Of a stretch of DNA of 64,000 bases, positions 2,744 through 54,970 are shown one piece after another. The position numbers were made by a program, and so were the translations under genes. The notes beneath the pieces were generated by a model. The model saw only the letters and a program-made list of their open reading frames with translations, had not been told where the DNA came from and searched no databases. This DNA is from a virus, in UHGV virus genome UHGV-1368191. One strand, written 5' to 3'. Every line of letters starts with the position of its first letter. Positions within the stretch are counted from its first letter, which is position 1.

Positions 2744-2768
2744 ATTTTATTCCTCACTAGTCCATTCT

Positions 2769-3961: not shown

Positions 3962-4129
3962 AACTATATCTTCTTCTATTTTTTGTAATACCAGCTTTTG
4001 GTGACATTGGTTTTGGTCTTCTCTTTCCTCTTGCCATAATTTTACACTTTTAGTTATTTACCTTTCTTACCCTTACCTTTTCCTTTACAACCACATTTCT
4101 TTGTCATAGTTAGTTAATATTAAAATAGA

Positions 4130-5568: not shown

Positions 5569-5579
5569 AAAAGTCTATT

Positions 5580-5855: not shown

Positions 5856-6238
5856 TTCTTTAAGATTTTAGTTATTAAGTAACCCAGTAGTCCTAATATC
5901 CCTACAATAAGTCCTCCTCCACATACCATTAAAACTTGTTGCCAACTCTTCAACCTATTTACTTCTTTGGTAACTTCTACTTTTTGGATCTTAGTTATAG
6001 TGTCTACCTTATTTACTGTATCCCTGTATTCCTTTATCCTATAGAGGATTTTATACTTATCTTGGAAAACAGTATCTCCTCTTTGTATTATTCTAATACT
6101 GTCTTTTTGGATAAAGGTGTCTACTTTAGTTCTGTCTATATACTCGGTTTTTACTGTTTCCACTGGGACTTCAATGTACTTTGTAGAAGCACAAGAACCT
6201 AATATAAACAGAAGAAGTACTATTAATATCTTTCTCAT
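5852..6238 (-). CDS. lipoprotein with a C-terminal TM anchor (128 aa)
   Basis: Signal peptide plus lipobox MRKILIVLLLFILGSC, and C-terminal GGGLIVGILGLLGYLITKIL. Confidence 0.5.
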   Translation of the reverse strand: MRKILIVLLLFILGSCASTKYIEVPVETVKTEYIDRTKVDTFIQKDSIRIIQRGDTVFQDKYKILYRIKEYRDTVNKVDTITKIQKVEVTKEVNRLKSWQQVLMVCGGGLIVGILGLLGYLITKILKK

Positions 6239-6333
6239 TCGGCAAATATATTAAAAATAAATCACCTATACAAGAGTATAAGTGATTTATTTATAGTCAG
6301 TAAGCATTATGAAGTTATCACTGGTTTAAAATA

Positions 6334-7575: not shown

Positions 7576-8528
7576 ATTAAGTCTATATCAGTACTAGTAA
7601 GAGGAGTAGCCACAGTACCATCAGCCGCCAAAAGTTGCTCTCCAGTTCCTCCTGATATAATATATCCCCCACCAGAAGTTACTTTTTGAGTACTTGGGTT
7701 ATAAGTAAGTCCTCTCATCTTATTTACGGAGTTAGTCTCAGATGCTGTATTATTGACTGTAAATCCTCCTAGTAAATTATAAGAACCATTAGTTGTGTTT
7801 ACAGCATTCTGTAATACTTTATGGTCATTTACCTGAGCACCTTCAGCTATTCCATTCAGCTTATTATACATGCCAGCTGACATCAGTCCTGCCTGTGCTG
7901 TATTAGCTGCCTCAAGGTTAAAATTAGCAGTACCTGGAGAACCATAATTAAGCCCTGATTTAGTAGCTCTATTAACATTAATAGTGATACTATCAGCATC
8001 AATGGTACCTCTAGAAACTGAGGAAACCATGGTTGCTGGAAGACTGTTCAGAGCATCTCTGTTAGCCTTTCCTTTGTCCCCAGGATAAGCTGTAGAACTA
8101 GTTTCTCCAAGAGCTAATGACTTGCTTATCTCTATATAAGTTGAACCTGACCATCTATATGCCAAATTAGTATCCAGAGCTACATAAATCTTACCTGTTT
8201 CTCCTGTTCCAGGGAAACCTGATTTATTGGGGAATTCGAGCACATCATCCACATAAGAAGGTAATTGGGAAGAGGGAACAAGTCCATTCCCATCTAGGGT
8301 AGCTACACCATTAGCAACTCCCATTTCACTTCTTTTTACCTGAGCATCATTGGTAAGATTAGACAATCCTACATCTGATTTAGTCAGTACTGGATTAGTG
8401 TGTATCTCATATCCATTTACAGTGTAGCTACCTACTAAATCTATAGCCTGGTTTACTTTAGTATCCACATAGGATTTTGATTTAGACCACAGATAAGCCA
8501 GACCTACATCATTTAAAAATCTAGTCAT
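7566..8528 (-). CDS. tail fiber protein (320 aa) sharing an approximately 85-aa module with the 619-aa fiber
   Basis: LPSYVDDVLEFPNKSGFPGTGETGKIYVALDTNLAYRWSGSTYIEISKSLALGETSSTAYPGDKGK is about 70% identical to a segment of ORF 8951-10810. Confidence 0.6.
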   Translation of the reverse strand: MTRFLNDVGLAYLWSKSKSYVDTKVNQAIDLVGSYTVNGYEIHTNPVLTKSDVGLSNLTNDAQVKRSEMGVANGVATLDGNGLVPSSQLPSYVDDVLEFPNKSGFPGTGETGKIYVALDTNLAYRWSGSTYIEISKSLALGETSSTAYPGDKGKANRDALNSLPATMVSSVSRGTIDADSITINVNRATKSGLNYGSPGTANFNLEAANTAQAGLMSAGMYNKLNGIAEGAQVNDHKVLQNAVNTTNGSYNLLGGFTVNNTASETNSVNKMRGLTYNPSTQKVTSGGGYIISGGTGEQLLAADGTVATPLTSTDIDLICV

Positions 8529-19567: not shown

Positions 19568-19637
19568 CTTATTTAGTTACGGAGGTAGGAATCGAACCTA
19601 CAGAGACTGGCTTATGAGACCAGTTTGAATACCAATT
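19568..19637 (-). tRNA. trnM(cau): tRNA with CAU anticodon (Met, initiator or Ile2-lysidine type) with a compact D-arm
   Basis: Minus-strand cloverleaf: anticodon stem CTGGT/GCCAG, loop CTCATAA, T-arm GTAGG-TTCGATT-CCTAC. Acceptor has a C1xA72 mismatch, as in bacterial initiator tRNA. Confidence 0.55.
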
Positions 19638-19643
19638 CTCCCC

Positions 19644-19715
19644 GTGATATTGAGTGGGATAGCAGATTTGAACTGCCCACCTCAGCTTGGAAGGCTGATA
19701 TGTTACCGCTAACAC
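19644..19715 (-). tRNA. trnG(ucc): tRNA-Gly (UCC)
   Basis: Clean 72-nt cloverleaf: acceptor GTGGGAT/ATCCCAC, D-arm GTGT-TAGCGGTA-ACAT, anticodon arm TCAGC-CTTCCAA-GCTGA, T-arm GGCAG-TTCAAAT-CTGCT. Confidence 0.8.
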
Positions 19716-19932
19716 CAATCCCACAAAAGGCCAAAGATTTGATTCTGGTACTTTGGCATTGCAAGGTTAACCTTAACTTGCACCCCTAATCACCTACATC
19801 CACTGAGCATAGATCTGCTCAAGCTTTTTAATTACGCAGGTCAGCTCCTACTGGATTTACCTAGTAGCATTAGGTGTTACTCTCCCACTGTAGGTAAGAC
19901 AGCCTTTAGTAACTGGGTTTCCTGCATCTTTC

Positions 19933-20004
19933 TACCTCTAGAGCTTCTGGAAGGACTTGAACCCTCAACTCCCTGATTACAAAACAAGTGTTCTACCATT
20001 GAAC
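19933..20004 (-). tRNA. trnT(ugu): tRNA, probably Thr (UGU)
   Basis: Acceptor GCTTCTG/CAGAAGC, D-arm TAGTTCAATGGTAGAACA, T-arm GAGGG-TTCAAGT-CCTTC. Anticodon loop TTTGTAA with one mismatch in the stem. Confidence 0.6.
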
Positions 20005-20009
20005 TACAG

Positions 20010-20093
20010 AAGCTTCAGTACCCCTGACAGGACTTGAACCTGCACTCCATAAAAGGAAAGGCATTTTAAGTGCCTTGGGTCTACCAATTTCCC
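20010..20093 (-). tRNA. trnL(uaa): tRNA-Leu (UAA) with a long variable arm
   Basis: Anticodon arm AGGCA-CTTAAAA-TGCCT, long variable arm, T-arm GCAGG-TTCAAGT-CCTGT, acceptor GCCCCTG/CAGGGGT. Confidence 0.7.
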
Positions 20094-20102
20094 CACAGGG
20101 GC

Positions 20103-22520: not shown

Positions 22521-22537
22521 AAGATATTATTTAAAGT

Positions 22538-22608
22538 ACCCCCTAAAGGGCTTGAACCTTTATCCTATAGTTTAAAAACTATTGCTCTATCCATTGAGCT
22601 AAGGGGGA
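22538..22608 (-). tRNA. tRNA-like gene with a non-canonical 16-nt anticodon arm (U/A-rich loop). Possible suppressor or unusual tRNA.
   Basis: Acceptor TCCCCCT/AGGGGGT, D-arm GCTC-AATGGATA-GAGC and T-arm AAAGG-TTCAAGC-CCTTT are good. The anticodon arm ATAGT-TTTTAA-ACTAT has only a 6-nt loop, or alternatively a 4-bp stem with an 8-nt loop. Confidence 0.5.
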
Positions 22609-27012: not shown

Positions 27013-27084
27013 GTCTCCATAGTTCAATGGACAGAACAAAGGTCTTCTAAACCTTAAATGTGAGTTCGATTCTCACTGGAGATA
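27013..27084 (+). tRNA. trnR(ucu): tRNA-Arg (UCU)
   Basis: Acceptor GTCTCCA/TGGAGAT, D-arm GTTC-AATGGACA-GAAC, anticodon arm AAGGT-CTTCTAA-ACCTT, T-arm GTGAG-TTCGATT-CTCAC. Confidence 0.75.
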
Positions 27085-27113
27085 CAATAAGCAAACTAAC
27101 ATCGGATTAACCA

Positions 27114-28339: not shown

Positions 28340-28590
28340 ATGCAGGTCCTGGGGTGTTCACCCCAAACTGCGTTGAATACACATAGTGGATACTATAATA
28401 ATATTAATGAATCATATCGGCTTAAAGTAATTGGGTAATACTTCGCTATTACCTATGACTACCATTTCAATTAATATGCCCTATGAAGCTTGATTGCTGA
28501 GGGTTGCTTTTGCTCTTGATGAGATGGTAGGTTCTTGCTTTTGATATAGTCATTGATATAGTTGGTATCTGCTATGTGTAACTTACCTTT

Positions 28591-28660
28591 GTATCTTGGT
28601 GTAATTGGTAGCACACTGGCTGTTGGGCTAGAGGTTAGGTTCGAGTCCTAAGATACACCA
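28591..28660 (+). tRNA. tRNA-like gene with an encoded CCA. Anticodon probably UUG (Gln), but the anticodon arm is one nt short.
   Basis: Acceptor GTATCTT/AAGATAC plus A plus CCA, D-arm TGTA-ATTGGTAG-CACA, T-arm TTAGG-TTCGAGT-CCTAA. Anticodon arm CTGGC-TGTTGG-GCTAG has a 6-nt loop. Confidence 0.5.
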
Positions 28661-35325: not shown

Positions 35326-36330
35326 TTGAATATTATTATGGCTATCAGCATTGGAAAACCCAGTATAATGGTGGATGATATATTATCAAAGGTAACAGAG
35401 ATTGATATACTATACCACTATTTTGGATGTATTAAGTTTGGCACACCCATAAATTCTCCATTAAGAGAAGACAGACATCCTTCTTTTGTTCTTTATATCA
35501 ATAAAGGAAGGGTTAGATTCAAGGATTTCTCAACTGGGGAAGGTGGGGGTCTATTTGATTTCCTAATGGCTTATTGGGGGGAGAGTTACAAATCCACTTT
35601 AGAGAGGATTTGGGAGGACTTACCCAATATTTCCAATGCTGAGGCCAACAATAGCATTACTAAAACCCATTATATCAGTAGAATAAATAAGTCCTCAAGA
35701 AGTACAATGGAATGCAGGATAAGAAGTTGGAAGGACTATGATTTAGAGTATTGGGAGAGCTATGGTATAACTCTTCCATGGCTTAAGTGGGCTGATGTAT
35801 ACCCTATATCACACAAGATTATCATAAAAGATGGCAAAAGGATGGTATTTAAGGCTGATAAATATGCTTATGCCTATATTGAAAGGAAAGAAGGCAATAT
35901 AACTCTTAAAATCTATCAACCTTTTAATAGGGATGGATTCAAGTGGTGCAATAAGCATGATAAATCAGTTGTAAGTCTTTGGACTAGAATACCAGAATAT
36001 GGTGACAGGGTGTGTATATGTTCTTCACTTAAGGATGCTCTCTGTCTTAGTTGTAATACAGGAATTCCAGCATTAGCTGTACAAGGTGAGGGCTATGGTA
36101 TGTCTGATACAGCCATAAATGAGTTAAAAAGAAGATTTAAGAGGCAATATGTTCTGTTTGACAATGATAAACCAGGAATAGAGGATGGAATAAAGCTTAG
36201 TCAAAGAACAGGATTTACCAATATTATATTACCCTCATTTGATGGAGGCAAGGATATATCAGACTACTTTAAGGTTTTAGGTAATAAAGAATTATTCAGG
36301 AATAAGATATTAACTTTATTTGAGGAATAA
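35326..36330 (+). CDS. DNA primase (DnaG/T7-type, Toprim)
   Basis: CHC2-finger-like region PLREDRHPSFVLY...FKDFSTGEGGGLFDFLM in a Cys-less variant. Toprim DxD motif YVLFDNDKPGIEDG. Confidence 0.65.
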   Translation: MNIIMAISIGKPSIMVDDILSKVTEIDILYHYFGCIKFGTPINSPLREDRHPSFVLYINKGRVRFKDFSTGEGGGLFDFLMAYWGESYKSTLERIWEDLPNISNAEANNSITKTHYISRINKSSRSTMECRIRSWKDYDLEYWESYGITLPWLKWADVYPISHKIIIKDGKRMVFKADKYAYAYIERKEGNITLKIYQPFNRDGFKWCNKHDKSVVSLWTRIPEYGDRVCICSSLKDALCLSCNTGIPALAVQGEGYGMSDTAINELKRRFKRQYVLFDNDKPGIEDGIKLSQRTGFTNIILPSFDGGKDISDYFKVLGNKELFRNKILTLFEE

Positions 36331-37024
36331 GATTGATTCAGGGAACATAATATTAACACTTAAATTTGGTTTAGTTATGGAATCAAGAACTATTAAAATC
36401 ATCAACAACAGAACACAGAGTCAAACAACTCTCTATACTTCAGCAGCCACTCTGGGAGAATTGAAAAATGAACTGGATAGTCGGGGTATAGACTATGATG
36501 GACTGGATTTCTATTGTGGGGAAATGAGAGCTGAATTGAAGGAGGATTCAGCACCTCTCCCTGAGAAGGTAATGTGGAAAGGAGAAGAGAAGAACTCCCT
36601 GACCTTCTTGCTTACCCCAACAAAGAAAATATCATCAGGTTCTAGGCGGGATATCTATGCCACTATCAAGAAATACAATCTGCAAGAAGTGGTAAAGGCC
36701 AAAACTGGAGCCAATTATACTCAAGTTTCAAATGATACCCTTGAGAAGATAATAAAAGACCATGTAAAAGATTCCTCTAAGGGTAATGAGGACTCCTCTA
36801 AGGGTAATGAAGGTTCCACCACTTGTCACACCAAAACTATAGAGGAGAGAGTCAAGAACCTGGAAGAGGCTTTTCTTAAATTGGTTGTAGCTCTCTATGA
36901 TATGGATTTTCTTGACAGGGATATTTACTGTGAACTGGTTGAATGTATTGAGGACAGTGACCCTGAGGATGACTTCTTAAGTCAGAGTGAGATAGATGAG
37001 ATGTTTGGTAGCTGGGCTAAATAG
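36320..37024 (+). CDS. ubiquitin-like beta-grasp domain protein with a C-terminal extension. The true start may be the Met at 36378.
   Basis: RTIKIINNRTQSQTTLYTSAATLGELKNELDSRGIDYDGLDFYCGEMRAELKEDSAPLPEKVMWKGEEKNSLTFLLTPTKKISSG follows the ubiquitin beta-beta-alpha-beta-beta pattern. Compare ubiquitin [36 protein letters not shown]...STLHLVL. Then a DSSKGNE tandem repeat and an acidic tail. Confidence 0.5.
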   Translation: MRNKIDSGNIILTLKFGLVMESRTIKIINNRTQSQTTLYTSAATLGELKNELDSRGIDYDGLDFYCGEMRAELKEDSAPLPEKVMWKGEEKNSLTFLLTPTKKISSGSRRDIYATIKKYNLQEVVKAKTGANYTQVSNDTLEKIIKDHVKDSSKGNEDSSKGNEGSTTCHTKTIEERVKNLEEAFLKLVVALYDMDFLDRDIYCELVECIEDSDPEDDFLSQSEIDEMFGSWAK

Positions 37025-37075
37025 AATGAATGTATAGGTAGGACTTACGTCCTACCTATTTTTTTTTAATATTAC

Positions 37076-38380
37076 ATGGATAAGGTAGAATTTGAAAAGA
37101 GTTGTGCTATTCCCTTCTTTAATGAAGTATTAGAGTATCCTAAAAAGATTTATCGGATATTTGAGGACTTCTATGGAGAGGAGAGAGTAGACCTTCAAGG
37201 ATTACCAAGCTATGGGAAAGTAGTTGACTTTCTTGATAATGCCTTTATAGGGATAGATACTCCCTCAAAAAGACAAACACTTATTGATAGAGCCCCAGAA
37301 GAGAATAAGGAAATAGTGAAAACTATAATCCTGGAAGCTATAAAAGAGAGTAGCCACATAGAATTTCGGAATAATCCATTTGCCATAAAGTATATTTTTC
37401 CTTTGGTAAAAGACCGACTTATAGGGGAATTATCAGGGAATTATGAGGTAAATATAATGGTGTGGTTTCCTGATGTAACTGTTACTAATGAGTATAATGA
37501 GTCTATTAATATAAAAGACTTATATGCCAAGGTTCCAATAAACCTCTTTGGGAGAAGTCTTGGAATGATAAAAATGAACAGGAGTACCTATACAGAAAGA
37601 CAACTTAGTAGTGGGTATGTTCATAGTCATGTTCCCAGAATGAATCCTAATACTCGAAGGAATCTGACTTATTTTGAGAGAATTTGCATGGGAACTGGTC
37701 CTATTAGAACCACTATAACTAACCTAGCTACGGAGTATGATGAAAATCTATGGGAACTACTATGCTTAGAGCTTGATAATTTCACTAAAGTAGAATCCAT
37801 ATTAGGAGGTCCCTATGTTAAGTTAGGGGAGATAGGAGTAGGAAGCCAAACGACAATAGAGGGAATGTTTTCCCATAATAAACCTTTTACTGGGGCTACT
37901 TCTTTCAGTGTAAAAGACCTTCATGAATTCATCAAATGGCTTATTTCAAGAAGAGTTTTAAAGTTTTCTCTCACTCCCACTGGAGTGGCACTTGCTCAAA
38001 GTAGATATGATTTAGCTATTAAGATAAGCAATGAATTCCTGAAGTATATCAATATTAAGATCAGTGCTAAAACAGTAGATTATACAATTGACGATTTAGT
38101 GAACTCCCTTGTATTAAGAAAACTCCTCATAAAGGATGGGAAATTCTATGCTGTAATTCCCATTTCTGATGACTATAGCACTTTAGAGGGAACTGACTTG
38201 TTCACCTTTAAGGGTAAGACTATAAAGCTCCACATAACTGAAGATACAGGGAATGGAGAGAATGTGGTTCTTTTACTGGGAGATGCTATTCTTCAAGATA
38301 TATGTAGAATTATTTTGGAAATAATAAATTATCATTATGGAAGGGAAAACAGAGTTGATAAAGGAATCTACTTTATTTGA
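37076..38380 (+). CDS. hypothetical protein (434 aa). Weak E2/UBC-like motif in mid-protein.
   Basis: YVHSHVPRMNPNTRRNLTYFERICMGTGP resembles the HPN...G.IC active-site region of E2 enzymes. Speculative. Confidence 0.4.
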   Translation: MDKVEFEKSCAIPFFNEVLEYPKKIYRIFEDFYGEERVDLQGLPSYGKVVDFLDNAFIGIDTPSKRQTLIDRAPEENKEIVKTIILEAIKESSHIEFRNNPFAIKYIFPLVKDRLIGELSGNYEVNIMVWFPDVTVTNEYNESINIKDLYAKVPINLFGRSLGMIKMNRSTYTERQLSSGYVHSHVPRMNPNTRRNLTYFERICMGTGPIRTTITNLATEYDENLWELLCLELDNFTKVESILGGPYVKLGEIGVGSQTTIEGMFSHNKPFTGATSFSVKDLHEFIKWLISRRVLKFSLTPTGVALAQSRYDLAIKISNEFLKYINIKISAKTVDYTIDDLVNSLVLRKLLIKDGKFYAVIPISDDYSTLEGTDLFTFKGKTIKLHITEDTGNGENVVLLLGDAILQDICRIILEIINYHYGRENRVDKGIYFI

Positions 38381-39398
38381 TTTAGTGATTCCAGTGAGTG
38401 TTGAGAGAAAGATTAGGATTTTATGTAAAGAGATTCCTAATCTTGAGTGGTCTGGTATATTGTTTTATACAACTGAAGGGAGTTTTGATGATGGTTCCTT
38501 GAAGATTATATGCAAGGATATCTTACAAATGGATGAGGGAACTGGCACTTATACTGAGTTCCAAACTTCTCCTGATATAGCTACCTATTTGGTAAGTCAT
38601 CCTGAATTGTGTAATATGTATCAAGGATTAATCCATTCACATGCTGGATTCCAGACTTTCTTTAGTGGAACTGACTTAAATACCTTGAAAGTAGAGGGCA
38701 GTGACATGGCTCATTTTGTATCTTTAATAGTCAATAATGAAGGTACTTATACAGCTGCTATAACAAGGAAAATCTTAGTGACTGGCCACATGAAAGAAAC
38801 TATTCCTACATGGAATGGAAAGAAAGACACTAGGGAGTATGAAATCACTAATACGGAAATTCGATATCATTTCCTTAAAGTTACCAAGGAAATGCAAGAA
38901 ACTCCTGATGATGATGAACTTCTTAATAGAATAGAAGAGATCAGGAAAGCCAAGAAAGAGACTTTAGCCAATAGGGTTTTCAATATCCCTGATAATCTTT
39001 ATAAGATACCTGTGCCTGAATCTGTGTCTCCTAGAGTTATTGATAGTAAAATGGATACACTAGTGAATAGTGTATTAAGACAACTTATATCAGGAACTCC
39101 TATAATAAACACCAAGAGGATGGACTTAAAAGCCTGGAGTGAAAACATAGAGAAAATCTATAGTAGGAGATTCAAGGACATACAGAGTTTCTCTAATTGG
39201 GCAGATTCCTATATTGATTTCCTTTTTAACTCCTACCAGTGTAGTGACTATGGATATAGTGATAATGAGGACTTTCACTTTCACTCTGACTTAGCAGAGG
39301 AACTTATTGATTCATTAGACCACTTAGGGAATAATGATTATTTTGATGCTTTTATTGAAATATTGAGTACTTATATTATAGATTATGGACATAACTGA
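38337..39398 (+). CDS. JAB/MPN (JAMM) metallopeptidase domain protein
   Basis: Exact JAMM motif HSHAGFQTFFSGTD (H-x-H-x7-S-x2-D), with an upstream conserved Glu in LEWSGILFYTTEG. Confidence 0.7.
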   Translation: MEGKTELIKESTLFDLVIPVSVERKIRILCKEIPNLEWSGILFYTTEGSFDDGSLKIICKDILQMDEGTGTYTEFQTSPDIATYLVSHPELCNMYQGLIHSHAGFQTFFSGTDLNTLKVEGSDMAHFVSLIVNNEGTYTAAITRKILVTGHMKETIPTWNGKKDTREYEITNTEIRYHFLKVTKEMQETPDDDELLNRIEEIRKAKKETLANRVFNIPDNLYKIPVPESVSPRVIDSKMDTLVNSVLRQLISGTPIINTKRMDLKAWSENIEKIYSRRFKDIQSFSNWADSYIDFLFNSYQCSDYGYSDNEDFHFHSDLAEELIDSLDHLGNNDYFDAFIEILSTYIIDYGHN

Positions 39399-40410
39399 AT
39401 TAGAGGAATTGATAGACAGTGATATTACAGCTGAGAGTAATGAAGAACCTACGGGGATTTATGCTCCTATTCCTTACCCTAGTACTACTCAGAGTGATCT
39501 TTTAGTATCACAATTGTCTCAAGGATATCTTAAAATACACTCTATAGAACCATATGAGAGAGACTATAAGGTTATAGTCACTGATGACACAGGTAATTTC
39601 ACTGCATATATAGTAGCTTATTCCTTGCTCTTAAGGATAAAAGAAGCAACAGAGCAATATGCTGCCAGTCAAGGAGCTGGTGTAAGTCCTAATTCCGCTT
39701 CCCTTGAATTTGATGAAACTACAAGCAGGTTCAATGGAGCTATTTGGTATGATAAAATCACTAACCAGCACATAATCCTTGCTGGATTAGGAGGAATAGG
39801 CAGTTGGACAGCATTATTGCTAGGAAGAATGAAACCAGCTCTTCTTGCATTGTATGATCCTGATGTAGTTGAAAGGTCTAATATGTCAGGACAACTATAT
39901 GGAGTATCTGAAATAGGATATAGTAAAGCAGCCTCTATAAGAAAGATTGTTAACTGGCTATCTGACTACTTTCCTTCAGCTCTGGATATGAGATATACAG
40001 GAACTTCACCAGCAAGAGATGTAATGATTTGTGGATTTGACAATATGGAGTCTAGACAACTATTCTATAAAAAATGGAAAGCTCATGTAAGTGGCTCAGA
40101 AGACAAGAAAAAATGTCTTTTTATAGATGGGAGATTAGCCGCTGAAAGTCTACAAGTATTCGCTATTACAGGTGATGACACCAGATCCATGAAACTTTAT
40201 GAAGAGAAATGGTTGTTTGATGATTCTGAAGCTGAAGCTACTGTTTGTTCTTATAAACAGACCTCCTTCATGGCTAATATGATAGCTTCCATTATAACAA
40301 ATATTTTCGTAAACTTTGTGGCTAATCAGTGTGATCCACCTTTCCCTAGGGAGGTTCCCTTCTTTACTGAATATGATGCTGCTACTATGTTCTTAAAGAT
40401 TGAATCATGA
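39385..40410 (+). CDS. E1-like ThiF/MoeB-family activating enzyme
   Basis: IILAGLGGIGSWTALLLGRMKPALLALYDPDVVERSNMSGQLYG, comprising the Rossmann GxGxxG and the D.D.VE.SN..RQ signature. Downstream CGFDNMESRQL. Confidence 0.75.
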   Translation: MDITELEELIDSDITAESNEEPTGIYAPIPYPSTTQSDLLVSQLSQGYLKIHSIEPYERDYKVIVTDDTGNFTAYIVAYSLLLRIKEATEQYAASQGAGVSPNSASLEFDETTSRFNGAIWYDKITNQHIILAGLGGIGSWTALLLGRMKPALLALYDPDVVERSNMSGQLYGVSEIGYSKAASIRKIVNWLSDYFPSALDMRYTGTSPARDVMICGFDNMESRQLFYKKWKAHVSGSEDKKKCLFIDGRLAAESLQVFAITGDDTRSMKLYEEKWLFDDSEAEATVCSYKQTSFMANMIASIITNIFVNFVANQCDPPFPREVPFFTEYDAATMFLKIES

Positions 40411-41204
40411 GTGTTAGTAATCAATTTAAAGATACCCTCAAATCTATGTTTCGTACTCAATGGGTTAAAGATGAGATGTATATTAACCCTGGAAACCTCA
40501 TTAGTGGACTTAGTTATGGGGATGTATGGCAGTCTTTTATCAGTGTGGATTGCAGGGACTTTAGTAGTTTAAGAATACCTCTGTTTCTAGGTGGGTTCCG
40601 CAAACTTAACTCTGTTATAACCACTAATCTTAGATCAGACACATGGGATATGAAGTATTTGATGGTACCCCTGAATCTAGGCAAATATCGTGTTAATACC
40701 CTTAAGAATTTTAAGTCATCTCTTCGGGCTATAAAGGAGATGAATGAGGCTGAACCCAATTTTGGAAATCCTCTATGCCAAGTTAAAATAAATGATACCA
40801 TTTACTATGGAGGTAGGGGAGCTTACTTTGATTCTAAAGGAAATCCCCTACTTATGATAATACTAGAGTGTGGCATGCAAGAGGGATATCATGTTATAGA
40901 CAGCAATTATAAGTTACAGATTAAAAATTGTTTTGTGTATATACACCCTAGAGTCTATACATCAAAAGGAGTGCTGGAGAAGTACATAGTATCAAAGATA
41001 CTACCTTATGTAATTACCAATACTTTCTGTATAGGGACTTATAACTCATTCATGTCATCTTCCCATGACTTGTACTCCCCAGTAGTTATAATAACTGACT
41101 TTGACTATATGTTCCACAAGCCTATTATAAATGAGAGTACCTCTAATGAGGAACTCAATGACTTGTTAATAGCTAATGTAGACAGTGTTGATAGATTCAC
41201 ATGA
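40407..41204 (+). CDS. hypothetical protein (265 aa), translationally coupled to the E1-like gene and to UDG
   Basis: ATGA overlaps at both ends. Confidence 0.5.
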   Translation: MSVSNQFKDTLKSMFRTQWVKDEMYINPGNLISGLSYGDVWQSFISVDCRDFSSLRIPLFLGGFRKLNSVITTNLRSDTWDMKYLMVPLNLGKYRVNTLKNFKSSLRAIKEMNEAEPNFGNPLCQVKINDTIYYGGRGAYFDSKGNPLLMIILECGMQEGYHVIDSNYKLQIKNCFVYIHPRVYTSKGVLEKYIVSKILPYVITNTFCIGTYNSFMSSSHDLYSPVVIITDFDYMFHKPIINESTSNEELNDLLIANVDSVDRFT

Positions 41205-41914
41205 CACTAAAGGAGTACTTTGGAGATTGGTTGAAGGTATTTGACTATAAAGAATTCAATAGCATACTTGCACAACTTAACACATTATACAGAACAAGAT
41301 TAATATGCCCTAAGAAAGAAAATGTCTTTAGGGCATTTAATCTTTGTCCTTATAATAGTTGTAGGTGTATCTTTATTGGATATGACCCTTACAATGATAT
41401 TTATGAAGGAGAACCTAGAGCCACTGGTATTTTGTTTGGAAATAATAAAAATATCAGTGAAGACAAGTATTCTCCTTCATTAAAAATTGTTAAGAATGCC
41501 AGTATAGATTTGTGTATTCCACATAATTATATTACCTTTGACCCCACATTGGAGAGCTGGGCTAAGCAAGGAATCTTGATGATAAACTCAGCTCTTACTG
41601 TTGAAGCATGGAAGCCAGGTTCACATCTAATGCTTTGGAGGAAATTTATTTCCACTATGCTTAGTAATATCTCACAAATAGAAACTGGAATGGTGTATGT
41701 GTTATTTGGTTCTGAAGCTAAGACTTTTAAGCCTTATATAGGAAAGAATAACACTATACTTGAAGAGAACCACCCAGCTTACTACGCTAGGATGCATAAA
41801 GAAATGCCTCCAGGGCTATTCAGAGAGATTAACACTATTTTAAAACGTATATATAATTATCAAATCAAATGGTTTAATTATGAAAACAATGAAGAGGAAT
41901 TACATTACTATTAA
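41201..41914 (+). CDS. ung: uracil-DNA glycosylase (family-1-like)
   Basis: KEYFGDWLKVF...ENVFRAFNLCPYNSCRCIFIGYDPYNDIYEGEPRATGILFGNN corresponds to the UNG water-activating loop GQDPYH and the flanking pattern. Confidence 0.65.
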   Translation: MTLKEYFGDWLKVFDYKEFNSILAQLNTLYRTRLICPKKENVFRAFNLCPYNSCRCIFIGYDPYNDIYEGEPRATGILFGNNKNISEDKYSPSLKIVKNASIDLCIPHNYITFDPTLESWAKQGILMINSALTVEAWKPGSHLMLWRKFISTMLSNISQIETGMVYVLFGSEAKTFKPYIGKNNTILEENHPAYYARMHKEMPPGLFREINTILKRIYNYQIKWFNYENNEEELHYY

Positions 41915-42347
41915 TTGTCATTCAATGGATGGAGTTTCAACTGAAGAGGCTGAAAAGTTCTTAGTGGAACTGTTTAAGAAAATGGGAATACTCGGAGAAG
42001 AGGAAGATGAAGAAGAAAGGGAAGCTGATAAAGTCATAGATCACTTAGCACACAGGTTGGAAATAGATGATCCAAGTGCTTTAGAGGATCTATTGAGTTG
42101 GATAGATAATGTTTCTGAGCTTTCTACTTTCCTTATTCTGGCTAAGGAATATGCCCTAATGCATAACTCTGGTACTCCTAAGGCTGATGAGTATTATACT
42201 TTCAACATCCTTAATGGATGTATAATAAGGATTAAGGATGTGAAAGAGTCAGTTCTTAAGCAGATTCCCTACTTCAAAACTGTAGAAGAGGCTAAGAAGT
42301 GTAAAGAGGTATTATATCCTTGGTGGGAGAGTGTATATGGAGAATAG
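41880..42347 (+). CDS. hypothetical acidic protein (155 aa)
   Basis: ORF track. Confidence 0.45.
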   Translation: MKTMKRNYITINCHSMDGVSTEEAEKFLVELFKKMGILGEEEDEEEREADKVIDHLAHRLEIDDPSALEDLLSWIDNVSELSTFLILAKEYALMHNSGTPKADEYYTFNILNGCIIRIKDVKESVLKQIPYFKTVEEAKKCKEVLYPWWESVYGE

Positions 42348-43485
42348 AAAGATTAGGGGGGCTACTAAAGTCGAGGTTGGTGAAACTGTCTTCAAGAGTA
42401 AATTAGAAGCTAGAATAGCCGAGGCCTTTCAAGAACTAGGAATAGAGTATGAGTATGAGAAATACAAGATTACTTTATTACCTAGTTTTGACTATGACAA
42501 GGAGCACTTTAGATCTATGATTTACACTCCAGACTTCAAGGTAGGAAATGCTATTATAGAAGCTAAAGGATTTCCCTCTGACGCTTGGAAAATACGAAAG
42601 AAAATAATCATGTGGACCTTGAAGAACATTCCAGAATTGGAATATTTCGAGGTTCACTCTATTCAAGAACTTCTTGACATGGTAGAACAAGATGATAGAT
42701 TCCTAACCTATAATATACAGGTGTTTACATTGGATAATACTTTTGTTGGTGAGTACAATTCAGTTACTGATGCTGTAAATGAACTAAACATAAAGTCAAA
42801 TAAGTCTAATATATTTTCTTGTATAATAGGAAAAAGGAATAAAGCTGGGGGTTATATATGGAAAAGAGTCTCCAGGGTATTTATTCCAGATGAGAATGAA
42901 GAATGGAAGGATGTCATTGGATTTGAAGGTCTCTACTATGTCTCTAACCTAGGAAGAGTAGCTTCAGCCCAATTCCATGGAATACGTAATTTCAGGTTAA
43001 TGAGTCAGTTTTCTGATTCTTTGGGATATCACTTCGTGAAATTGAGGAATTGGAAGAAGGGTATAGTTATGAGTGCTCCTGTTCATAGATTGGTAGCTGA
43101 GGCTTTCCTCCCTAATCCTGAGAACAAACCTCAAGTAGATCATATTGACACTGATCCCTCTAATAATAATGTTGAGAACCTTAGATGGGCCACCAGCCTG
43201 GAAAACCAAAGGAATCCACTGACTTTAGAGAGATTACGTAGTTCCATAATCTCTATGAATAAACAGGGAATAGGACCAAAAGCAAGTGCTAAAAAGAAAA
43301 GAAAGAGAGTCGTATTCACTGATGGAACTTCTGTCACTAGATATGAATCAATTAGTCAAGCTTCCAAGGCTACTGGGCTTTCTACTTGCTCTATACAGAG
43401 ATGGTGTAACAGGCAGATAAAAGGATGGAGTTATGAACAATCAGAACATACAGAAACTGATCAAGGAAGCGGAGGTAATACCTAA
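42331..43485 (+). mobile_element. free-standing homing endonuclease gene with an N-terminal PD-(D/E)xK-like region, NUMOD4, HNH and two NUMOD1/IENR-like DNA-binding modules
   Basis: YTPDFKV...IIEAKG, WKDVIGFEGLYYVSNLGRV (NUMOD4), VDHIDTDPSNNNVENLRWATSLEN (HNH), and two copies of F...SV.DA...L.I....I..C..GKRNKAGGYIWK-like modules. Confidence 0.7.
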
Positions 43486-44664: not shown

Positions 44665-47556
44665 ATGACAGAGCAAGAATGGCTAAATGATAATCAGCTC
44701 TCATTGGATATATGGCATAAAAAGTACCAAGTTGACAATGAGAGCTTTGAGCACTGGCTTGATAGAGTAAGTGGAGGAAACCAAGATATAAGACAACTTA
44801 TTCTTGAAAAGAAATTCCTGTTTGGGGGTAGGATACTAGCAAGTAGAGGAGTGACTGACAGAAGGGTTACTTATAGTAACTGTTATGTAATTGCACCCCC
44901 AAGGGATAATATTGAATCTATCTTTGAAACTGCAAGTAAGTTAGCAAGAACTTATAGTTATGGAGGAGGCTGTGGTGTGGATATTAGCAACCTTAGACCT
45001 AAAGGTACTATAGTCCATAATGCAGCTAAAAGTACATCAGGTGCTATAAGTTTCATGGACTTCTATAGCTATGTTACTGGTCTTATAGGTCAGTCAGGCA
45101 GACGTGGGGCATTAATGATTAGTATTAGCTGTAAGCATCCTGACATTGAGGAGTTTATTAATCTTAAAACTAAAGCTGGAGTATGTGAAAAAGCTAACAT
45201 AAGTATCAGAGTATCTGATGAATTTATGGAAGCTGCTATACAGGATAGGGATTGGATAACTGAATTTACAAGTCCTGAGACTGGTACTATAACCAAGACT
45301 TTCAAGGCAAAAGATTTGTTAAAACTCCTAGCTAAAAGAAATTGGGAGTGGGCAGAACCTGGATTATTATATTGGGATAGAATTGCTCATTATAATATGC
45401 TTGATAATGATGATGCTTTTGCTTATGCAGGGGTCAACCCATGTCTTACAGGAGATAGCTTGATTCAAACAGTGGAAGGGGAAATTCCTATAAAGGAGTT
45501 AGTAGGAAGTACTCCATTTGTATATTGTATGGATTCTGATGGTAATCTTGCTATAAGAAAAGCTGTTAAGGTTTGGAAAACAAGAAAGAATGCTCAACTT
45601 GTTGAGGTTATAGCAGGTAAGGGAAGACTAATTTGTACTCCAGACCATAGAATATTTACTACTAATAGAGGTTGGGTTGAGGCTGCTAATCTTCAAAAAG
45701 GAGATAAAATAAAGGGTCTTAATAGACAAACTACAGGGCATAAATATTGTTCTGTAAGCCTTAGTGGCACTAAGTATGAGAAGGAACATAGATTTATTGC
45801 AAGACACTTCTATGATATAGAAGATATGGATGTTCATCATATTAATGATAATGGGTTTGACAATAGATTATCAAATCTTGAAGTTATCACTCATGAGGAA
45901 CATTCAAAACTTTCTAATACTGGAAGGGTTATTGAAGTTAATAGAGATGAAACTACTGGAAGGTATCTTCCTAAAGAAGAGCATACAGGTAGAACCTGTA
46001 GAAACTTAGGAAAGGAAGTAGGTATTAATTGGTATATTCAAGAAGTAAGAACTCTTGATTATACTGAGGATGTCTATGACATGACTATAGAGGACACTCA
46101 TAACTTCATTGCTAATGGGTTTGTAGTTCATAATTGTGCTGAAGAGCCATTACCAGCAGGAGGCTCATGCTTATTGGGTAGTATTAACCTTAGTGAATTT
46201 GTAACTAATCCATTTACTGATAAGGCTAAGATGAACTGGATTAGTCTTGTAGAAGCTGTAGAGATAGCTATCTCAGGTCTTAACGAAGTACTTGATGAAG
46301 GTATGATGTTACATCCTCTTCAAGAGCAAAGAGACTCTGTAAATAAGTGGAGACAAGTTGGCTTAGGTACAATGGGATTAGCTGATATGCTAATTAAATT
46401 AGGTATTGCTTACGGTTCTAATAAAGCTCTTGAGATAACTGAAAGAGTATATAAGCTTATAGCAGCAACAGCTGTGCAAGCATCTATCAAATTAGCTACT
46501 TTTTCAGGATGCTATCCTATGTGTGATAAGGAGAAGTTAGCTAATTCCTCGTTCATTAAATCATTAAATCTTCCAGATGAAATGATTAGTGATATAAGGA
46601 CTTATGGATTAAGAAATAGTCAACTTCTTACTTGTGCTCCTACAGGTAGTATTGCTACCATGTTGCAAGTATCTACTGGAGTAGAACCTAACTTTGCATT
46701 AAAGTACACAAGAAAGACTCAATCATTGAATGGTAAAGATACTTATTATGAAGTATTTGCTAAAATAGTAGATGACTATATTGGTGATAGATATGGTGAA
46801 GATATAAAACTTCCTGATTACTTTGTAGAGTCTAAGGATATAGCTTCTATTGATAGAATCAAAATGCAGGCAGTACTACAGAAGTACACTGATGCAAGTA
46901 TTAGTTCTACAATAAATCTTCCTAAAGAAGCTACAGTGGAAGATGTGTATAACATCTATGTAGAAGCATGGAAGCATGGACTTAAGGGATGTACAGTCTA
47001 CAGGAGTGGATGCTTTAGGGAAGGTATTCTTACTACTAAAAAGCCTATCAATATGCAAGCTGTAGGTGCTCCTAAGAGACCTAAAGAGCTTCCCTGTGAT
47101 ATTCATAAGGTAAAGGTGAAAGGAGAGAACTTCATAGTATGTGTGGGTCTTTATGAGGAGAAACCATATGAGGTATTTGTCTTTAGGCTCAAGAATAACA
47201 TAGAGCTTACTGACACAAGGGGAACCATAACCAAGCTCAAGAAGGGTGTATATAGCCTTGAGTCAAAGGATTTGATAATAAATAACCTCCTTAATACTGA
47301 TATTACTGTTGAGGAGAAGGCTGCCACTCTGTATAGTTCTATGCTTCTTAGGCATGGAATCTCTCTTAAGTATATTATTAAGACAGCAAGGAAAGTCAAT
47401 GATAATATAATCTCTTTCAGTAGTGCCATGTGTAGGGTACTATCTAAGTATTTACCTAAGGATACTGGGGAATCCTGTCCTGAATGTGGTGAGAAATTAA
47501 TAAGAACTGGAGGATGTGTCTCATGTCCTTCCTGTGGTTATAGTAGATGTGAGTAA
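44665..47556 (+). CDS. nrdJ: ribonucleotide reductase (class II/NrdJ-like) interrupted by an HNH-type intein
   Basis: SYGGGCGVDISNLRPKG, thiyl-radical NPC motif split by the intein (AGVNP|C...VVHN|CAEEPLPAGGSCLLGSINL), and C-terminal Cys zinc ribbon CPECGEKLIRTGGCVSCPSCGYSRCE. No nrdB gene nearby. Confidence 0.75.
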   Translation: MTEQEWLNDNQLSLDIWHKKYQVDNESFEHWLDRVSGGNQDIRQLILEKKFLFGGRILASRGVTDRRVTYSNCYVIAPPRDNIESIFETASKLARTYSYGGGCGVDISNLRPKGTIVHNAAKSTSGAISFMDFYSYVTGLIGQSGRRGALMISISCKHPDIEEFINLKTKAGVCEKANISIRVSDEFMEAAIQDRDWITEFTSPETGTITKTFKAKDLLKLLAKRNWEWAEPGLLYWDRIAHYNMLDNDDAFAYAGVNPCLTGDSLIQTVEGEIPIKELVGSTPFVYCMDSDGNLAIRKAVKVWKTRKNAQLVEVIAGKGRLICTPDHRIFTTNRGWVEAANLQKGDKIKGLNRQTTGHKYCSVSLSGTKYEKEHRFIARHFYDIEDMDVHHINDNGFDNRLSNLEVITHEEHSKLSNTGRVIEVNRDETTGRYLPKEEHTGRTCRNLGKEVGINWYIQEVRTLDYTEDVYDMTIEDTHNFIANGFVVHNCAEEPLPAGGSCLLGSINLSEFVTNPFTDKAKMNWISLVEAVEIAISGLNEVLDEGMMLHPLQEQRDSVNKWRQVGLGTMGLADMLIKLGIAYGSNKALEITERVYKLIAATAVQASIKLATFSGCYPMCDKEKLANSSFIKSLNLPDEMISDIRTYGLRNSQLLTCAPTGSIATMLQVSTGVEPNFALKYTRKTQSLNGKDTYYEVFAKIVDDYIGDRYGEDIKLPDYFVESKDIASIDRIKMQAVLQKYTDASISSTINLPKEATVEDVYNIYVEAWKHGLKGCTVYRSGCFREGILTTKKPINMQAVGAPKRPKELPCDIHKVKVKGENFIVCVGLYEEKPYEVFVFRLKNNIELTDTRGTITKLKKGVYSLESKDLIINNLLNTDITVEEKAATLYSSMLLRHGISLKYIIKTARKVNDNIISFSSAMCRVLSKYLPKDTGESCPECGEKLIRTGGCVSCPSCGYSRCE
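45442..46134 (+). mobile_element. intein (231 aa) with an HNH homing endonuclease, inserted at the RNR active-site NPC motif
   Basis: Starts with Cys (45442-45444), ends with HN (46129-46134), and is followed by Cys as the first host-protein residue. HNH box DVHHINDNGFDNRLSNLEVITHEEH. Confidence 0.7.
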
Positions 47557-53044: not shown

Positions 53045-54970
53045 ATGAGACTTATAAAACCATCATTTGAAATTTGGAAACAAGAACCTGGATTAGAAGG
53101 AATATATAAAGCCATTGAGAGAGCAGGGCGTGTATGCTATAGGTCTGAGGACAAGATAACAGAAGATAGTGCTAAGCCTTTTGTAGATAGAATGATTAAA
53201 GCAGGTCACTGCTATACAGGAGATACAGAGGTACTAACTGAGAATGGTTGGATTAAATTTAGAGATTATAATGGTGAAAAAGTTGCTGTAATAAATAAGG
53301 ATTGTTCATTTAAAGGTTTTGAAAATCCAAAAAGAATAGTAAGTTATTCTTATAAAGGTAATTTTTATTATTATCCTTCACTAGGTATAGAAGTTACTGA
53401 TGGACATAATATGTTTGGGATTTTCAGAGAAAGCAAAAACGACTTTTATAAAAACAATTCGTATTCTTTATTTAAATGCAATGGATATTATAAAGATAAT
53501 AATGGCAGAGAAAAAACTTTAGGAGAAAGAATGTTTAAAACTCCAAGACATTGTCTAAAAAGCAAGTCTTTAAATCCTTATGGAGAGTTAATTGGGTTTT
53601 GGTTAGGAGATGGATGCTATAGTCCTGAAACTAAAAATAAATTAGTGTTTCATTTAAAGAAGCCAAGAAAAATAGAATATCTAAAACAATTATGTGAAGA
53701 ACTGGGATATATTTTTGAAGAAAGAAAATCTAATTATTATACTGTTACTAATAATAATATAGGGAGTTCTTTTAATTCATTGTTTTATAATAATGGCAAA
53801 AGAATATCATTACAGTACTTTCCATCATTAGATATAGCTTTTTCTATTATTGAAGGACTAATAAATTCAGATGGTAGTAGAGCAAAAAACACTAAAACTA
53901 TAACTTTTACAAATACTAGTAAAAGTATAATTGATTGGTTATTAATATATGCTCCTATATGTGGTTATTCTATTTCTAACAGAGGTATTTCCCATAATAC
54001 TACTTTACATAATCCTGTATATAAAGTATTATTATTAGATACTAACTATACCTTAAATAATGATTCTAGAGATAAAGACTCTAAAGTTATTATTACTAAT
54101 AAAGTAGAGGAAGTCTATTGTGTTACAGTATCTACTGGATTAATAATGGTTAGGGGAATAAATGGGATTACTACTATTTGTGGTAATTGTGCTATGTTAG
54201 AACATGGTACTGTATATTTAGCTATTCCAATGACTACTTATGCTCCTGAGGCAGTTAATATATATCATAACAATTCCTATTCAAAAGTAAATAAATGTAA
54301 TGAATTTATATTTACTGATAAATACGGAGATAAGGTTGCAGCATGGTGCGTAACAACTAATTTAAGAGTTTTAGTAGAAAATGATTGCTTAGAAGATTTA
54401 GAATTTCTTTGTGAACCTACAGAGTTCCATGAGAAAAGAGTTTGTGTACACTTTGTATGTGATAGAGGTGTATCACATGAGTTTGTAAGGCATAGAGTAA
54501 TGTCTTTTGCTCAGGAAAGTACGAGGTATTGCAACTACTCTAAGGATAAGTTTAGTAATGAACTTACCTTTATTATTCCTTGTTGGTGTGATGATATTCC
54601 TGATGCTTTAAGCCTAAAAGATAGTATGGATGTAAAGAAGTTTGTTTGGGGAACTGATAATTTGGCTGCTACAGTTGAAGAAAAAGGTGTAGTGAATAGG
54701 CAAGTTAGTAAGTTTACTCAAAGATTTCTATATGAAATGCAAGGAGATGAAGATACATATATAGGGCTTATAGCTGCTGGATATAAACCACAGGAAGCAA
54801 GAGCCGTTCTCTCTAACTCCTTAAAGACAGAATTAGTAATGACTGGCTTTGTATCTGATTGGAAACATTTCTTTGAGTTAAGATGTGCTGACAATGCTCA
54901 TCCTCAAGCCAGGGAATTGGCTATTCCTTTAAGAGAAGAGTTTATTAAAAGGGATTATATTAATGAATGA
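53045..54970 (+). CDS. thyX: FAD-dependent thymidylate synthase ThyX interrupted by a LAGLIDADG intein
   Basis: IKAGH|C...ICGN|CAMLEHG, ThyX signature SHEFVRHRVMSFAQESTRY, C-terminal WKHFFELRCADNAHPQARELAIPL. Confidence 0.75.
   Translation: MRLIKPSFEIWKQEPGLEGIYKAIERAGRVCYRSEDKITEDSAKPFVDRMIKAGHCYTGDTEVLTENGWIKFRDYNGEKVAVINKDCSFKGFENPKRIVSYSYKGNFYYYPSLGIEVTDGHNMFGIFRESKNDFYKNNSYSLFKCNGYYKDNNGREKTLGERMFKTPRHCLKSKSLNPYGELIGFWLGDGCYSPETKNKLVFHLKKPRKIEYLKQLCEELGYIFEERKSNYYTVTNNNIGSSFNSLFYNNGKRISLQYFPSLDIAFSIIEGLINSDGSRAKNTKTITFTNTSKSIIDWLLIYAPICGYSISNRGISHNTTLHNPVYKVLLLDTNYTLNNDSRDKDSKVIITNKVEEVYCVTVSTGLIMVRGINGITTICGNCAMLEHGTVYLAIPMTTYAPEAVNIYHNNSYSKVNKCNEFIFTDKYGDKVAAWCVTTNLRVLVENDCLEDLEFLCEPTEFHEKRVCVHFVCDRGVSHEFVRHRVMSFAQESTRYCNYSKDKFSNELTFIIPCWCDDIPDALSLKDSMDVKKFVWGTDNLAATVEEKGVVNRQVSKFTQRFLYEMQGDEDTYIGLIAAGYKPQEARAVLSNSLKTELVMTGFVSDWKHFFELRCADNAHPQARELAIPLREEFIKRDYINE
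53210..54187 (+). mobile_element. intein (326 aa) with a double LAGLIDADG homing endonuclease in ThyX
   Basis: Starts with Cys56, contains LIGFWLGDGCYS and IIEGLINSDGSRA, and ends ...TTICGN followed by Cys. Confidence 0.65.

Follow-up and report, generated by a model that had tools for sequence, protein, structure and literature searches.

Gene content of the locus

The window analyzed here (the whole stretch of 64,000 nucleotides from the virus genome UHGV-1368191) belongs to a crAss-like phage of the Steigviridae type and contains, on its plus strand, a cassette of five consecutive open reading frames (ORF1 to ORF5) that probably encodes a pathway for the activation and conjugation of a ubiquitin-like protein (Ubl). 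No near-identical DNA is found among the deposited phages, and the window represents a new genome; the closest relative is the IMG/VR sequence UViG_3300045988_086482 (hereafter L004), with amino-acid identity of 78–96%. The ORFs of the window are colinear with the crAss001 genes for gp80 (primase), gp79, gp78, gp77, gp76, gp75 and gp74 (uracil-DNA glycosylase, UDG), and ORF1–ORF5 correspond, in this order, to gp79–gp75, as homologs or by position. The public labels of the crAss001 proteins are “metalloprotease domain” for gp77 and “thiamine biosynthesis protein” for gp76. The cassette and the two flanking genes are the following:

35326–36330, plus strand: primase, upstream of the cassette
36377–37024, plus strand: ORF1, pro-Ubl (homolog of crAss001 gp79), with an N-terminal ubiquitin-like domain and a C-terminal helical “cargo” (AlphaFold2 model, homolog starts)
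37076–38380, plus strand: ORF2, 434 aa, multidomain protein (homolog of crAss001 gp78; phrog_15310) with a central E2/UBC-like domain
38337–39398, plus strand: ORF3, JAB/JAMM metallopeptidase (homolog of crAss001 gp77; motif, profile)
39385–40410, plus strand: ORF4, E1-like adenylating enzyme (homolog of crAss001 gp76; Pfam ThiF, profile)
40407–41204, plus strand: ORF5, 265 aa, fast-evolving (crAss001 gp75 position), with ATGA overlaps with the E1 and UDG genes
41201–41914, plus strand: UDG, downstream of the cassette

A preliminary description of this DNA listed five ORFs between positions 36320 and 41204; all five lie where it placed them, and every motif that it quoted is present. The four ATGA overlaps reported there are reduced to two, 40407/40410 and 41201/41204, whereas ORF2 and ORF3 overlap by 44 nt, and ORF3 and ORF4 by 14 nt. 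The placement of the cassette within a block of replication genes agrees with the presence of the primase upstream and the UDG downstream. This plus-strand DNA-metabolism block encodes DnaB-like helicase, primase, UDG, PD-(D/E)XK exonuclease, ribonucleotide reductase (RNR), PolA and ThyX, with dUTPase as another neighbor. Comparison with L004 yields ratios of nonsynonymous to synonymous substitution rates (dN/dS) of 0.11–0.43 for all genes compared and of 0.14–0.43 for the cassette, which indicates purifying selection.

The ubiquitin-like protein and its extension

36377–36640, plus strand: beta-grasp domain of 88 residues, ending in the flexible K-K-I-S-S-G (36623–36640; AlphaFold2 model)
after the Gly codon 36638–36640, plus strand: predicted JAB cleavage or activation site
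36641–37021, plus strand: C-terminal extension of ORF1, 127 aa, consisting of a helical module, a low-complexity linker and a second helical module (AlphaFold2 model)

The start of ORF1, originally placed at TTG 36320, is almost certainly ATG 36377 because the homologs begin with MET or MES. The family has no match in Pfam, PHROGs, NCBIfam or PADLOC, and all 321 homologs identified in a collection of 5.8 billion proteins are devoid of Pfam domains; the dN/dS relative to L004 is 0.14. An AlphaFold2 model built from 63 sequences contains a confident beta-beta-alpha-beta-beta...beta domain (predicted local distance difference test, pLDDT, ~90), followed by a disordered K-I-S-S-G segment (pLDDT <50) and by two helical modules with a low-confidence linker between them. 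The modeled fold is a beta-grasp, which answers the concern that the ORF1 product might not adopt it, and the Ubl domain with the tail ...TPTKKISSG anticipated in the preliminary description is thus retained. The DSSKGNE repeat, in contrast, does not directly follow the SSG as had been stated, but sits in the low-confidence linker inside the conserved 127-residue helical extension. The second helical module of this extension closes with a conserved ...S-x-x-E-I-D-E-M-F motif; searches of Pfam and the PDB with the cargo produce sequence matches at noise level only, and a resemblance to HeH/SAP domains is a tentative impression.

The Ser-Gly pair of the tail is invariant (63/63 and 75/75 sequences). 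In all 75 homologs from related loci, the tail has the form K-K-[IVT]-[KRA]-S-G at residues 86–96 and precedes 2–226 further residues, usually with Ala first. Individual tails are ...K-K-I-K-S-G in crAss001, ...K-S-G-G in phage Fpv1, ...K-V-S-S-G in Dulem virus 41 and ...K-V-D-S-G in a metagenome-assembled genome (MAG) of Puia. The Ubl is nearly always fused to the conserved cargo. In cr106_1 (2989–4192), a gene for an HNH endonuclease splits the gp79 homolog into a stand-alone Ubl of 92 aa and a separate cargo ORF of 130 aa; this Ubl ends in ...K-S-G-K-F, with the stop codon two residues past the Gly.

A terminator-like hairpin after the Ubl gene

37034–37068, plus strand: hairpin resembling an intrinsic terminator (11-bp stem, 4-nt loop; 37034–37059) followed by T9, in the 51-nt spacer between ORF1 and ORF2

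The translational coupling of ORF1 to ORF2 that had been proposed does not hold, given that this spacer with its strong terminator-like hairpin parts the two genes. The site is the sole strong terminator-like element on the plus strand within 33–45 kb. A stable hairpin with a T-run is present in 43 of the 48 distinct Ubl–ORF2 spacers of related phages (ΔG −13 to −22.5 kcal/mol), with stem sequences that vary by lineage. The hairpin would raise the Ubl-to-enzyme ratio or close an upstream transcription unit.

The JAB peptidase

38445–38447, plus strand: catalytic Glu37 of ORF3
38634–38675, plus strand: H100-S-H-x7-S-x2-D113 motif of ORF3

The assignment of ORF3 to the JAMM metallopeptidases stands: the motif E37...H100-S-H102-x7-S110-x2-D113 is complete, and across 77 sequences none of its residues falls below 98% conservation. 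In the family profile, it lines up with the motifs of CSN5 and Pyrococcus JAMM1. The JAB model of PADLOC is matched by 12 of 34 family members, and the homolog from Dulem virus 41 scores 23.5 bits against Prok-JAB of Pfam, which is under the gathering cut-off of 25. The C-terminal half of ORF3 (residues ~200–353) is conserved as well. In Flavobacterium phage Fpv1 (4710–7002), a reverse-strand gene for a LAGLIDADG homing endonuclease (5226–5975) appears to split the JAB gene just ahead of the H-x-H; the two halves are assigned to separate PHROGs, 21448 and 16107.

The E1-like enzyme

39721–40389, plus strand: ThiF domain of ORF4, residues 113–335
39784–39804, plus strand: P-loop-like G134-x-G-G-x-G-S of ORF4
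39889–39891, plus strand: Gly169 of ORF4 (S-N-M-S-G-Q)
40246–40248, plus strand: invariant C288 of ORF4 (in C-S-Y-K-Q-T)

ORF4 had been described as an E1-like enzyme of the ThiF/MoeB type on the strength of the motifs G134-L-G-G-I-G-S and D158-P-D-V-V-E-R-S-N; both are present, and the Pfam ThiF domain is matched with E = 4.8e-15 (55.8 bits against a cut-off of 28.1). The invariant residues of the family include G134, G136 and G137 of the G-x-G-G-x-G-S motif, D158, D160, N166, K181, D219, R224, R115 and C288. The last of these, invariant in 31 of the 31 aligned homologs, is the candidate for the E1 catalytic Cys that the preliminary description had recommended to look for. The N-terminal ~110 aa are variable and are missing in Fpv1, Dulem virus 41 and the Puia locus, where the E1 comprises 225–236 aa. 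By its sequence, ORF4 is predicted to be a single-domain, ThiF/UBA5-like minimal E1.

A search with the family profile identifies UBA5 (3e-11), MccB (6e-10), TcdA (1.5e-8) and PaaA (1.9e-8), followed by UBA6, ThiF and Cap2. The proximity of MccB, TcdA and PaaA to UBA5 in this search, together with the ~110-aa N-terminal extension of the window protein, is compatible with an E1 that acts on a non-Ubl substrate, either by C-terminal peptide modification, as in MccB and PaaA, or by tRNA base cyclization, as in TcdA, and that is clustered with Ubl, JAB and ORF2 genes belonging to another pathway. MccB, too, has an N-terminal extension. However, that of ORF4 is not conserved, the matches to UBA5, MccB, TcdA and PaaA reach only the shared nucleotide-binding half, and the E1 is in every case accompanied by a JAB and by a beta-grasp partner with a Gly tail next to it, so we regard a substrate of this kind as very unlikely.

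A role in sulfur transfer has to be considered in view of the public label of gp76. Here, the Ubl would resemble ThiS, MoaD, CysO or QbsE, the JAB would trim it, the E1 would adenylate it, and the resulting thiocarboxylate would serve to thiolate a nucleotide, tRNA or DNA base, with ORF2 as the sulfur acceptor or transferase. The best NCBIfam matches of the E1 are of the ThiF type, and base thiolation would fit the neighborhood of primase, UDG, dUTPase, RNR and ThyX. CysO/Mec+ and QbsE/QbsD are examples of JAB peptidases paired with sulfur carriers. Trios of JAB, E1 and sulfur carrier are also known in sulfur-assimilation clusters (PMC1779556). Nevertheless, the NCBIfam scores of ORF4 are 50 bits for ThiF, against a cut-off of 159, and 27 for MoeB, against 449, and with values so far below the cut-offs the “thiamine biosynthesis” label is unsupported. 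A Pfam search of the cassette and its neighbors found no ThiG, ThiH, MoaE or rhodanese partner, no cysteine desulfurase and no Zn-binding CxxC pairs; we accordingly rejected the ThiF/ThiS and MoeB/MoaD annotations. The Ubl tail is S-G, as opposed to the G-G typical of sulfur carriers, the neighbors of ORF2 are E2, UEV and RWD proteins, and the E1 profile search is topped by UBA5, a true conjugating E1. A sulfur-carrier system is, in our assessment, unlikely. The preliminary description had also raised the prospect of an E1 that has no Ubl partner; in these phages, there is a co-conserved Ubl with an invariant C-terminal-type Gly.

The E2-like protein

37373–37795, plus strand: UBC-like core of ORF2, residues ~100–240 (AlphaFold2 model)
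37622–37630, plus strand: H183-S184-H185 loop of ORF2
37685–37687, plus strand: C204 of ORF2 in C-x-G-x-G-P, invariant

The ORF2 family consists of 3,041 clusters at 50% identity, 990 of these with E ≤ 1e-30. The AlphaFold2 model is confident (pLDDT 88; predicted template modeling score, pTM, 0.73), and the order of elements in the core, namely a helix, three long strands, the H183-S184-H185 loop, C204 and two helices, is that of the UBC fold. The region of the core (residues 123–255) is the sole part of ORF2 that is conserved with the Flavobacterium phages; H183 is at least 90% conserved, and S184, H185 and C204 are invariant. The preliminary description had suggested a divergent E2 on the basis of an HPN-like “MNPN” stretch. 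This stretch is not conserved; the conserved motif of ORF2 is H183-S184-H185...C204-x-G-x-G-P, whose residues have the order and location expected for an HPN-like motif and a downstream catalytic Cys.

Database searches do not connect ORF2 to characterized E2 enzymes. There was no E2 match in Pfam (for the window protein and 61 family members), NCBIfam, PADLOC or a PDB profile search, and none in a Foldseek comparison of the model with the PDB. An hhalign comparison of the core with approximate sequences of UBE2D2, UBE2N and UBE2I likewise produced no match, and an exhaustive profile search yielded close full-length relatives among the matches listed and no bridge to known E2 families. On the strength of the model, ORF2 likely has a UBC-like fold and is probably an E2; an active E2 with C204 as the catalytic residue is plausible, and a Bub-like chemistry that involves Ser184 and His185 may operate instead.

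The conserved Ubl–cargo fusion lends itself to another interpretation, in which the Ubl is a removable folding or assembly tag for the cargo, analogous to ubiquitin–ribosomal protein fusions and lambda TAPI/TAPK, the JAB frees the cargo, and the E1- and UBC-like proteins are non-conjugating, e.g., bind the Ubl as inactive UEV/RWD-type proteins do. Phage pairs of Ubl and JAB without an E1 do occur in tail-assembly clusters (PMC1779556), and the E1 of the cassette is without one canonical Arg. This E1 nevertheless retains nearly all other adenylation residues and the invariant Cys, and ORF2 has an invariant Cys and an S-H in the expected region, whereas RWD/UEV domains are without the Cys (PMC1779556). 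Moreover, E1 and ORF2 strictly co-occur with the Ubl, and in cr106_1 the Ubl is separate from the cargo and yet is retained with its S-G tail, which argues that the free Ubl has a function of its own. Taken together, a processing-only or chaperone role appears quite unlikely.

ORF5

ORF5 occupies the same position in most loci, with a family identity of ~22%, a dN/dS of 0.32 and few invariant residues (P58, Y133, G135, G138, K192, P200 and L254). Neither the single protein nor the family has a match in Pfam, PHROGs, NCBIfam, PADLOC or the PDB. An analogy to BubE (DUF6527) was considered and dropped because there is no invariant Ser/His; a DUF6527 match was not found either. ORF5 is a possible member of the module.

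Conservation and distribution

The search of IMG/VR identified 379 stretches that encode the E1, and gene order was assessed in 80 loci. The order primase – Ubl – ORF2 – JAB – E1 – (ORF5) – UDG is essentially invariant in these 80 loci, and the cassette order is kept in ~80 of 83 related loci. Among deposited phage genomes, E1 and ORF2 are found in the same 74 (29 from Bacteroides, 29 from Flavobacterium, 12 uncultured and four others). In tblastn comparisons, the E1-like protein shows 50–60% identity to those of Steigviridae phages (crAss001, DAC15/17, PhiCrAssBcn, cr106_1 and others) and 36% identity to those of the Flavobacterium Fipvunavirus phages; the same gene order is seen in Dulem virus 41, the Flavobacterium phages and the Puia MAG (E1 identity 37%). 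The gene set is thus kept across related phages, a point that the preliminary description had singled out for examination, and the cassette is a conserved feature of the whole lineage (Steigviridae, Flavobacterium Fipvunavirus and relatives) rather than a peculiarity of one phage.

A scan of ~185,000 species genomes with the E1 alignment identified 11 loci. Each of them comes from a MAG, and the majority are on contigs of phage size, some of which are binned as Firmicutes or Spirochaetia. Two loci are located in large contigs, namely a 374-kb contig of a Puia sp. MAG (2760–8337) and a 640-kb contig of a Bacilli MAG. The MAG occurrences could reflect integrated or plasmid-like phages, chimeric assemblies or mis-binning. 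ThiF homologs from five jumbo phages (e.g., Xanthomonas phage PhiXhv-12) were also considered as potential members, but were placed outside the cassette family because they have no recognizable Ubl or JAB neighbors.

Proposed pathway

For a phage-encoded pathway of Ubl activation and conjugation, the analysis provides the protein folds (a likely one in the case of ORF2), catalytic motifs, a Gly tail that is conserved, the co-conservation of the genes and purifying selection. The cleavage, adenylation, thioester transfer and conjugation steps, the nature of the target, and a role in protein modification or counter-defense are what we infer beyond these observations. ORF1 would be made as a precursor in which the beta-grasp Ubl is fused to the helical C-terminal protein, and the ORF3 JAB would cut after the invariant Ser-Gly (Gly88), to yield a Ubl with a C-terminal glycine and a separate cargo. 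ORF4, probably a homodimer, would adenylate the glycine of the Ubl and probably hold the Ubl as a thioester on Cys288, from where it would be handed on to Cys204 of the UBC-like domain of ORF2. ORF2 would then attach the Ubl to a phage or host protein; given that no E3 is present, the choice of the target would fall to the flanking domains of ORF2, or else to ORF5. The JAB may also reverse the modification, and the terminator behind the Ubl gene would keep the Ubl in excess over the enzymes. The location of the cassette between the primase and UDG genes suggests that the target is possibly related to replication or defense. All of these steps have counterparts in the bacterial Bil and Bub systems, for which the gene order Ubl–E2–JAB–E1 is documented, as is a Ubl fusion that a JAB cleaves behind a conserved Gly (PMC11601596; PMC1779556).

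Several observations weigh against a conjugation pathway. The Ubl tail is S-G instead of G-G, and the Pfam Prok-JAB match of ORF3 (E = 2.9e-4, 21.1 bits) falls under the 25-bit gathering cut-off. The hhalign alignment of ORF4 with ThiF (95.5% probability) covers the ATP-binding half only and ends before the crossover loop, so that the proposed equivalence of C288 to the crossover-loop Cys of ThiF (C184) and UBA5 (C250) comes from a manual comparison of positions. Similarly, C204 would be assigned to the E2 active site by its position in the modeled core of ORF2. In alignments with UBA5 and ThiF, the Arg of the S-N-L-x-R-Q motif that contacts the ATP phosphates is replaced by the invariant Gly169 throughout the ORF4 family, including the Puia MAG homolog (37% identity), and therefore the adenylation chemistry may be atypical; the N-terminal Arg (R115) is kept. 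Finally, searches of the literature identified no target, E3, conjugate or experimental data for these genes.

Relation to known systems

The closest parallels to the cassette are found in bacterial operons. Bil (bacterial ISG15-like), which is operon type 6d of Iyer, Burroughs and Aravind (2006), encodes BilA (Ubl), BilB (E2), BilC (JAB) and BilD (E1) (PMC11601596; PMC1779556). Like Bil, the cassette has no E3 and keeps the four components, with an E2-like protein in the place of the E2, on individual genes that follow each other as Ubl–E2–JAB–E1. The type 6d operons also contain an additional, rapidly diverging protein (Iyer et al., PMC1779556) to which ORF5 can be compared; furthermore, the JAB of Bil presumably matures the Ubl or takes it off (PMC11601596; PMC1779556). 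Unlike Bil, which serves as an anti-phage defense in bacteria, the cassette belongs to the replication module of virulent-type phages. The PADLOC models of Bil have no match among the Ubl, E2 and JAB, and BilD matches the E1 weakly (E = 2e-4, ~100 residues). The cassette E1 is a single adenylation domain of ~225 aa, whereas BilD has the IAD-AAD-CYS architecture (PMC11601596); the E2-like core is embedded in the three-part ORF2 of 434 aa, and the Ubl has a helical cargo as its fusion partner.

Type I Bub (6E / DUF6527), which consists of BubAB (Ubl–E2 fusion), BubCD (JAB–E1 fusion) and BubE (serine protease), is colinear with the cassette in that Ubl, E2, JAB, E1 and a fifth gene follow each other. 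As in Bub, the Ubl is made as a fusion, predicted here to be cleaved by the JAB after a conserved Gly, and the E1 is minimal, single-domain and UBA5/ThiF-like. In the cassette, however, all genes are separate and the fusion partner of the Ubl is a helical protein, not the E2; the E1 and E2 each have a candidate catalytic Cys, in contrast to the Tyr and Ser oxyester chemistry of Bub, and ORF5 has neither a DUF6527 match nor an invariant Ser-His pair.

Among enzymes with solved structures, UBA5 is the best sequence relative of ORF4 (3e-11). UBA5 consists of one adenylation domain, in which a Cys marks the end of the crossover loop, and its partner UFM1 has one terminal Gly with a propeptide of two residues behind it, an arrangement comparable to the SG-KF end of the cr106_1 Ubl. 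The similarity is nevertheless confined to the ATP-binding half, the Arg of the motif is a Gly in the phage E1, and no UFC1- or UFL1-like partner is apparent by sequence. The differences from CBASS, with its Cap2 (E2–E1 fusion) and Cap3 (JAB), are greater: there is no CD-NTase among the neighbors and no E2–E1 fusion, the PADLOC E1-E2 matches cover the nucleotide-binding loop only, and the cassette has a dedicated Ubl, whereas Cap2 conjugates the C-terminus of the cyclase itself. The TAPI/TAPK proteins of phages lambda and T1 likewise combine a beta-grasp protein that has a conserved Gly and an extra C-terminal domain with a JAB (PMC1779556), but these are tail-module proteins without E1 or E2, and the JAB is fused to NlpC/P60, whereas the cassette is part of the replication module and has an E1 as well as an E2-like protein. 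In sequence, the cassette proteins fall outside the Bil, Bub and CBASS families.

Searches of the accessible literature, which leaves out subscription papers and supplementary tables and thus could miss an earlier mention, identified no interpretation of these crAss genes as a Ubl system, and two main crAss genome papers do not bring them up in their main text. It is possible, although we put this forward only tentatively, that the Steigviridae and the Flavobacterium Fipvunavirus phages encode a complete Ubl conjugation cascade, the first recognized in viruses of prokaryotes, that covalently tags host or phage proteins during infection to control the replication machinery or to subvert Bil, Bub or CBASS immunity. 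If true, phages would possess a mirror image of the systems by which bacteria tag phage proteins. Ubl–E2–JAB–E1 sets have so far been described only as bacterial anti-phage defenses, Ubl conjugation in prokaryotes has been demonstrated as a bacterial weapon against phages (Bil, CBASS Cap2/3 and probably Bub), and the cassette suggests the reverse. Its carriers form one of the most abundant phage lineages in the human gut, and the cassette is as tightly conserved there as the genes for primase and UDG. If the proteins do conjugate, they would represent a new category of phage takeover or counter-defense mechanism. The E1/E2 pair would be compact and unusual, with a single-domain E1 that is without the canonical Arg, an E2 core within a larger protein and a Ubl–cargo fusion, and the annotation of crAss001 and dozens of deposited genomes (“thiamine biosynthesis protein”, “metalloprotease domain protein”, “hypothetical”) would have to be corrected. 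Cultured pairs suitable for direct tests are crAss001 with Bacteroides intestinalis, DAC15 with B. thetaiotaomicron, and the FpV phages with Flavobacterium psychrophilum.

Other features of the genome

The window has a G+C content of ~35%, with a switch of coding strand and GC skew near 26 kb. In L004 (4390–5005), ~600 extra bases that are missing from the window separate the primase and Ubl genes, and this difference in length suggests a small mobile-gene insertion or a deletion. The RNR (window 44665–47556) contains an intein with an HNH_3 endonuclease domain (residues ~274–490), and the crAss001 RNR is ~100 aa shorter. The gene at 42331–43485, in the position of the crAss001 gp72 “Holliday junction resolvase”, encodes homing-endonuclease modules (NUMOD1/NUMOD4 and HNH_3) joined to an N-terminal domain that resembles phage endonuclease I / DUF1064. 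A LAGLIDADG_3 match in the N-terminal or central part of the ThyX (Thy1) thymidylate synthase (53045–54970, 641 aa) may represent another intein or endonuclease insertion.

ARAGORN predicts seven tRNA genes in the window (19576–20102, 22536–22608, 27013–27085 and 28590–28659), specific for Met, Gly, Thr, Leu and Arg, plus two others to which ARAGORN assigns an undetermined two-base “tt” anticodon. Suppressor tRNAs occur in crAss-like phages, and the two may be of this or another unusual type; Rfam gives a solid tRNA match (57.8 bits) at 22537–22608, but not at 28590–28659.

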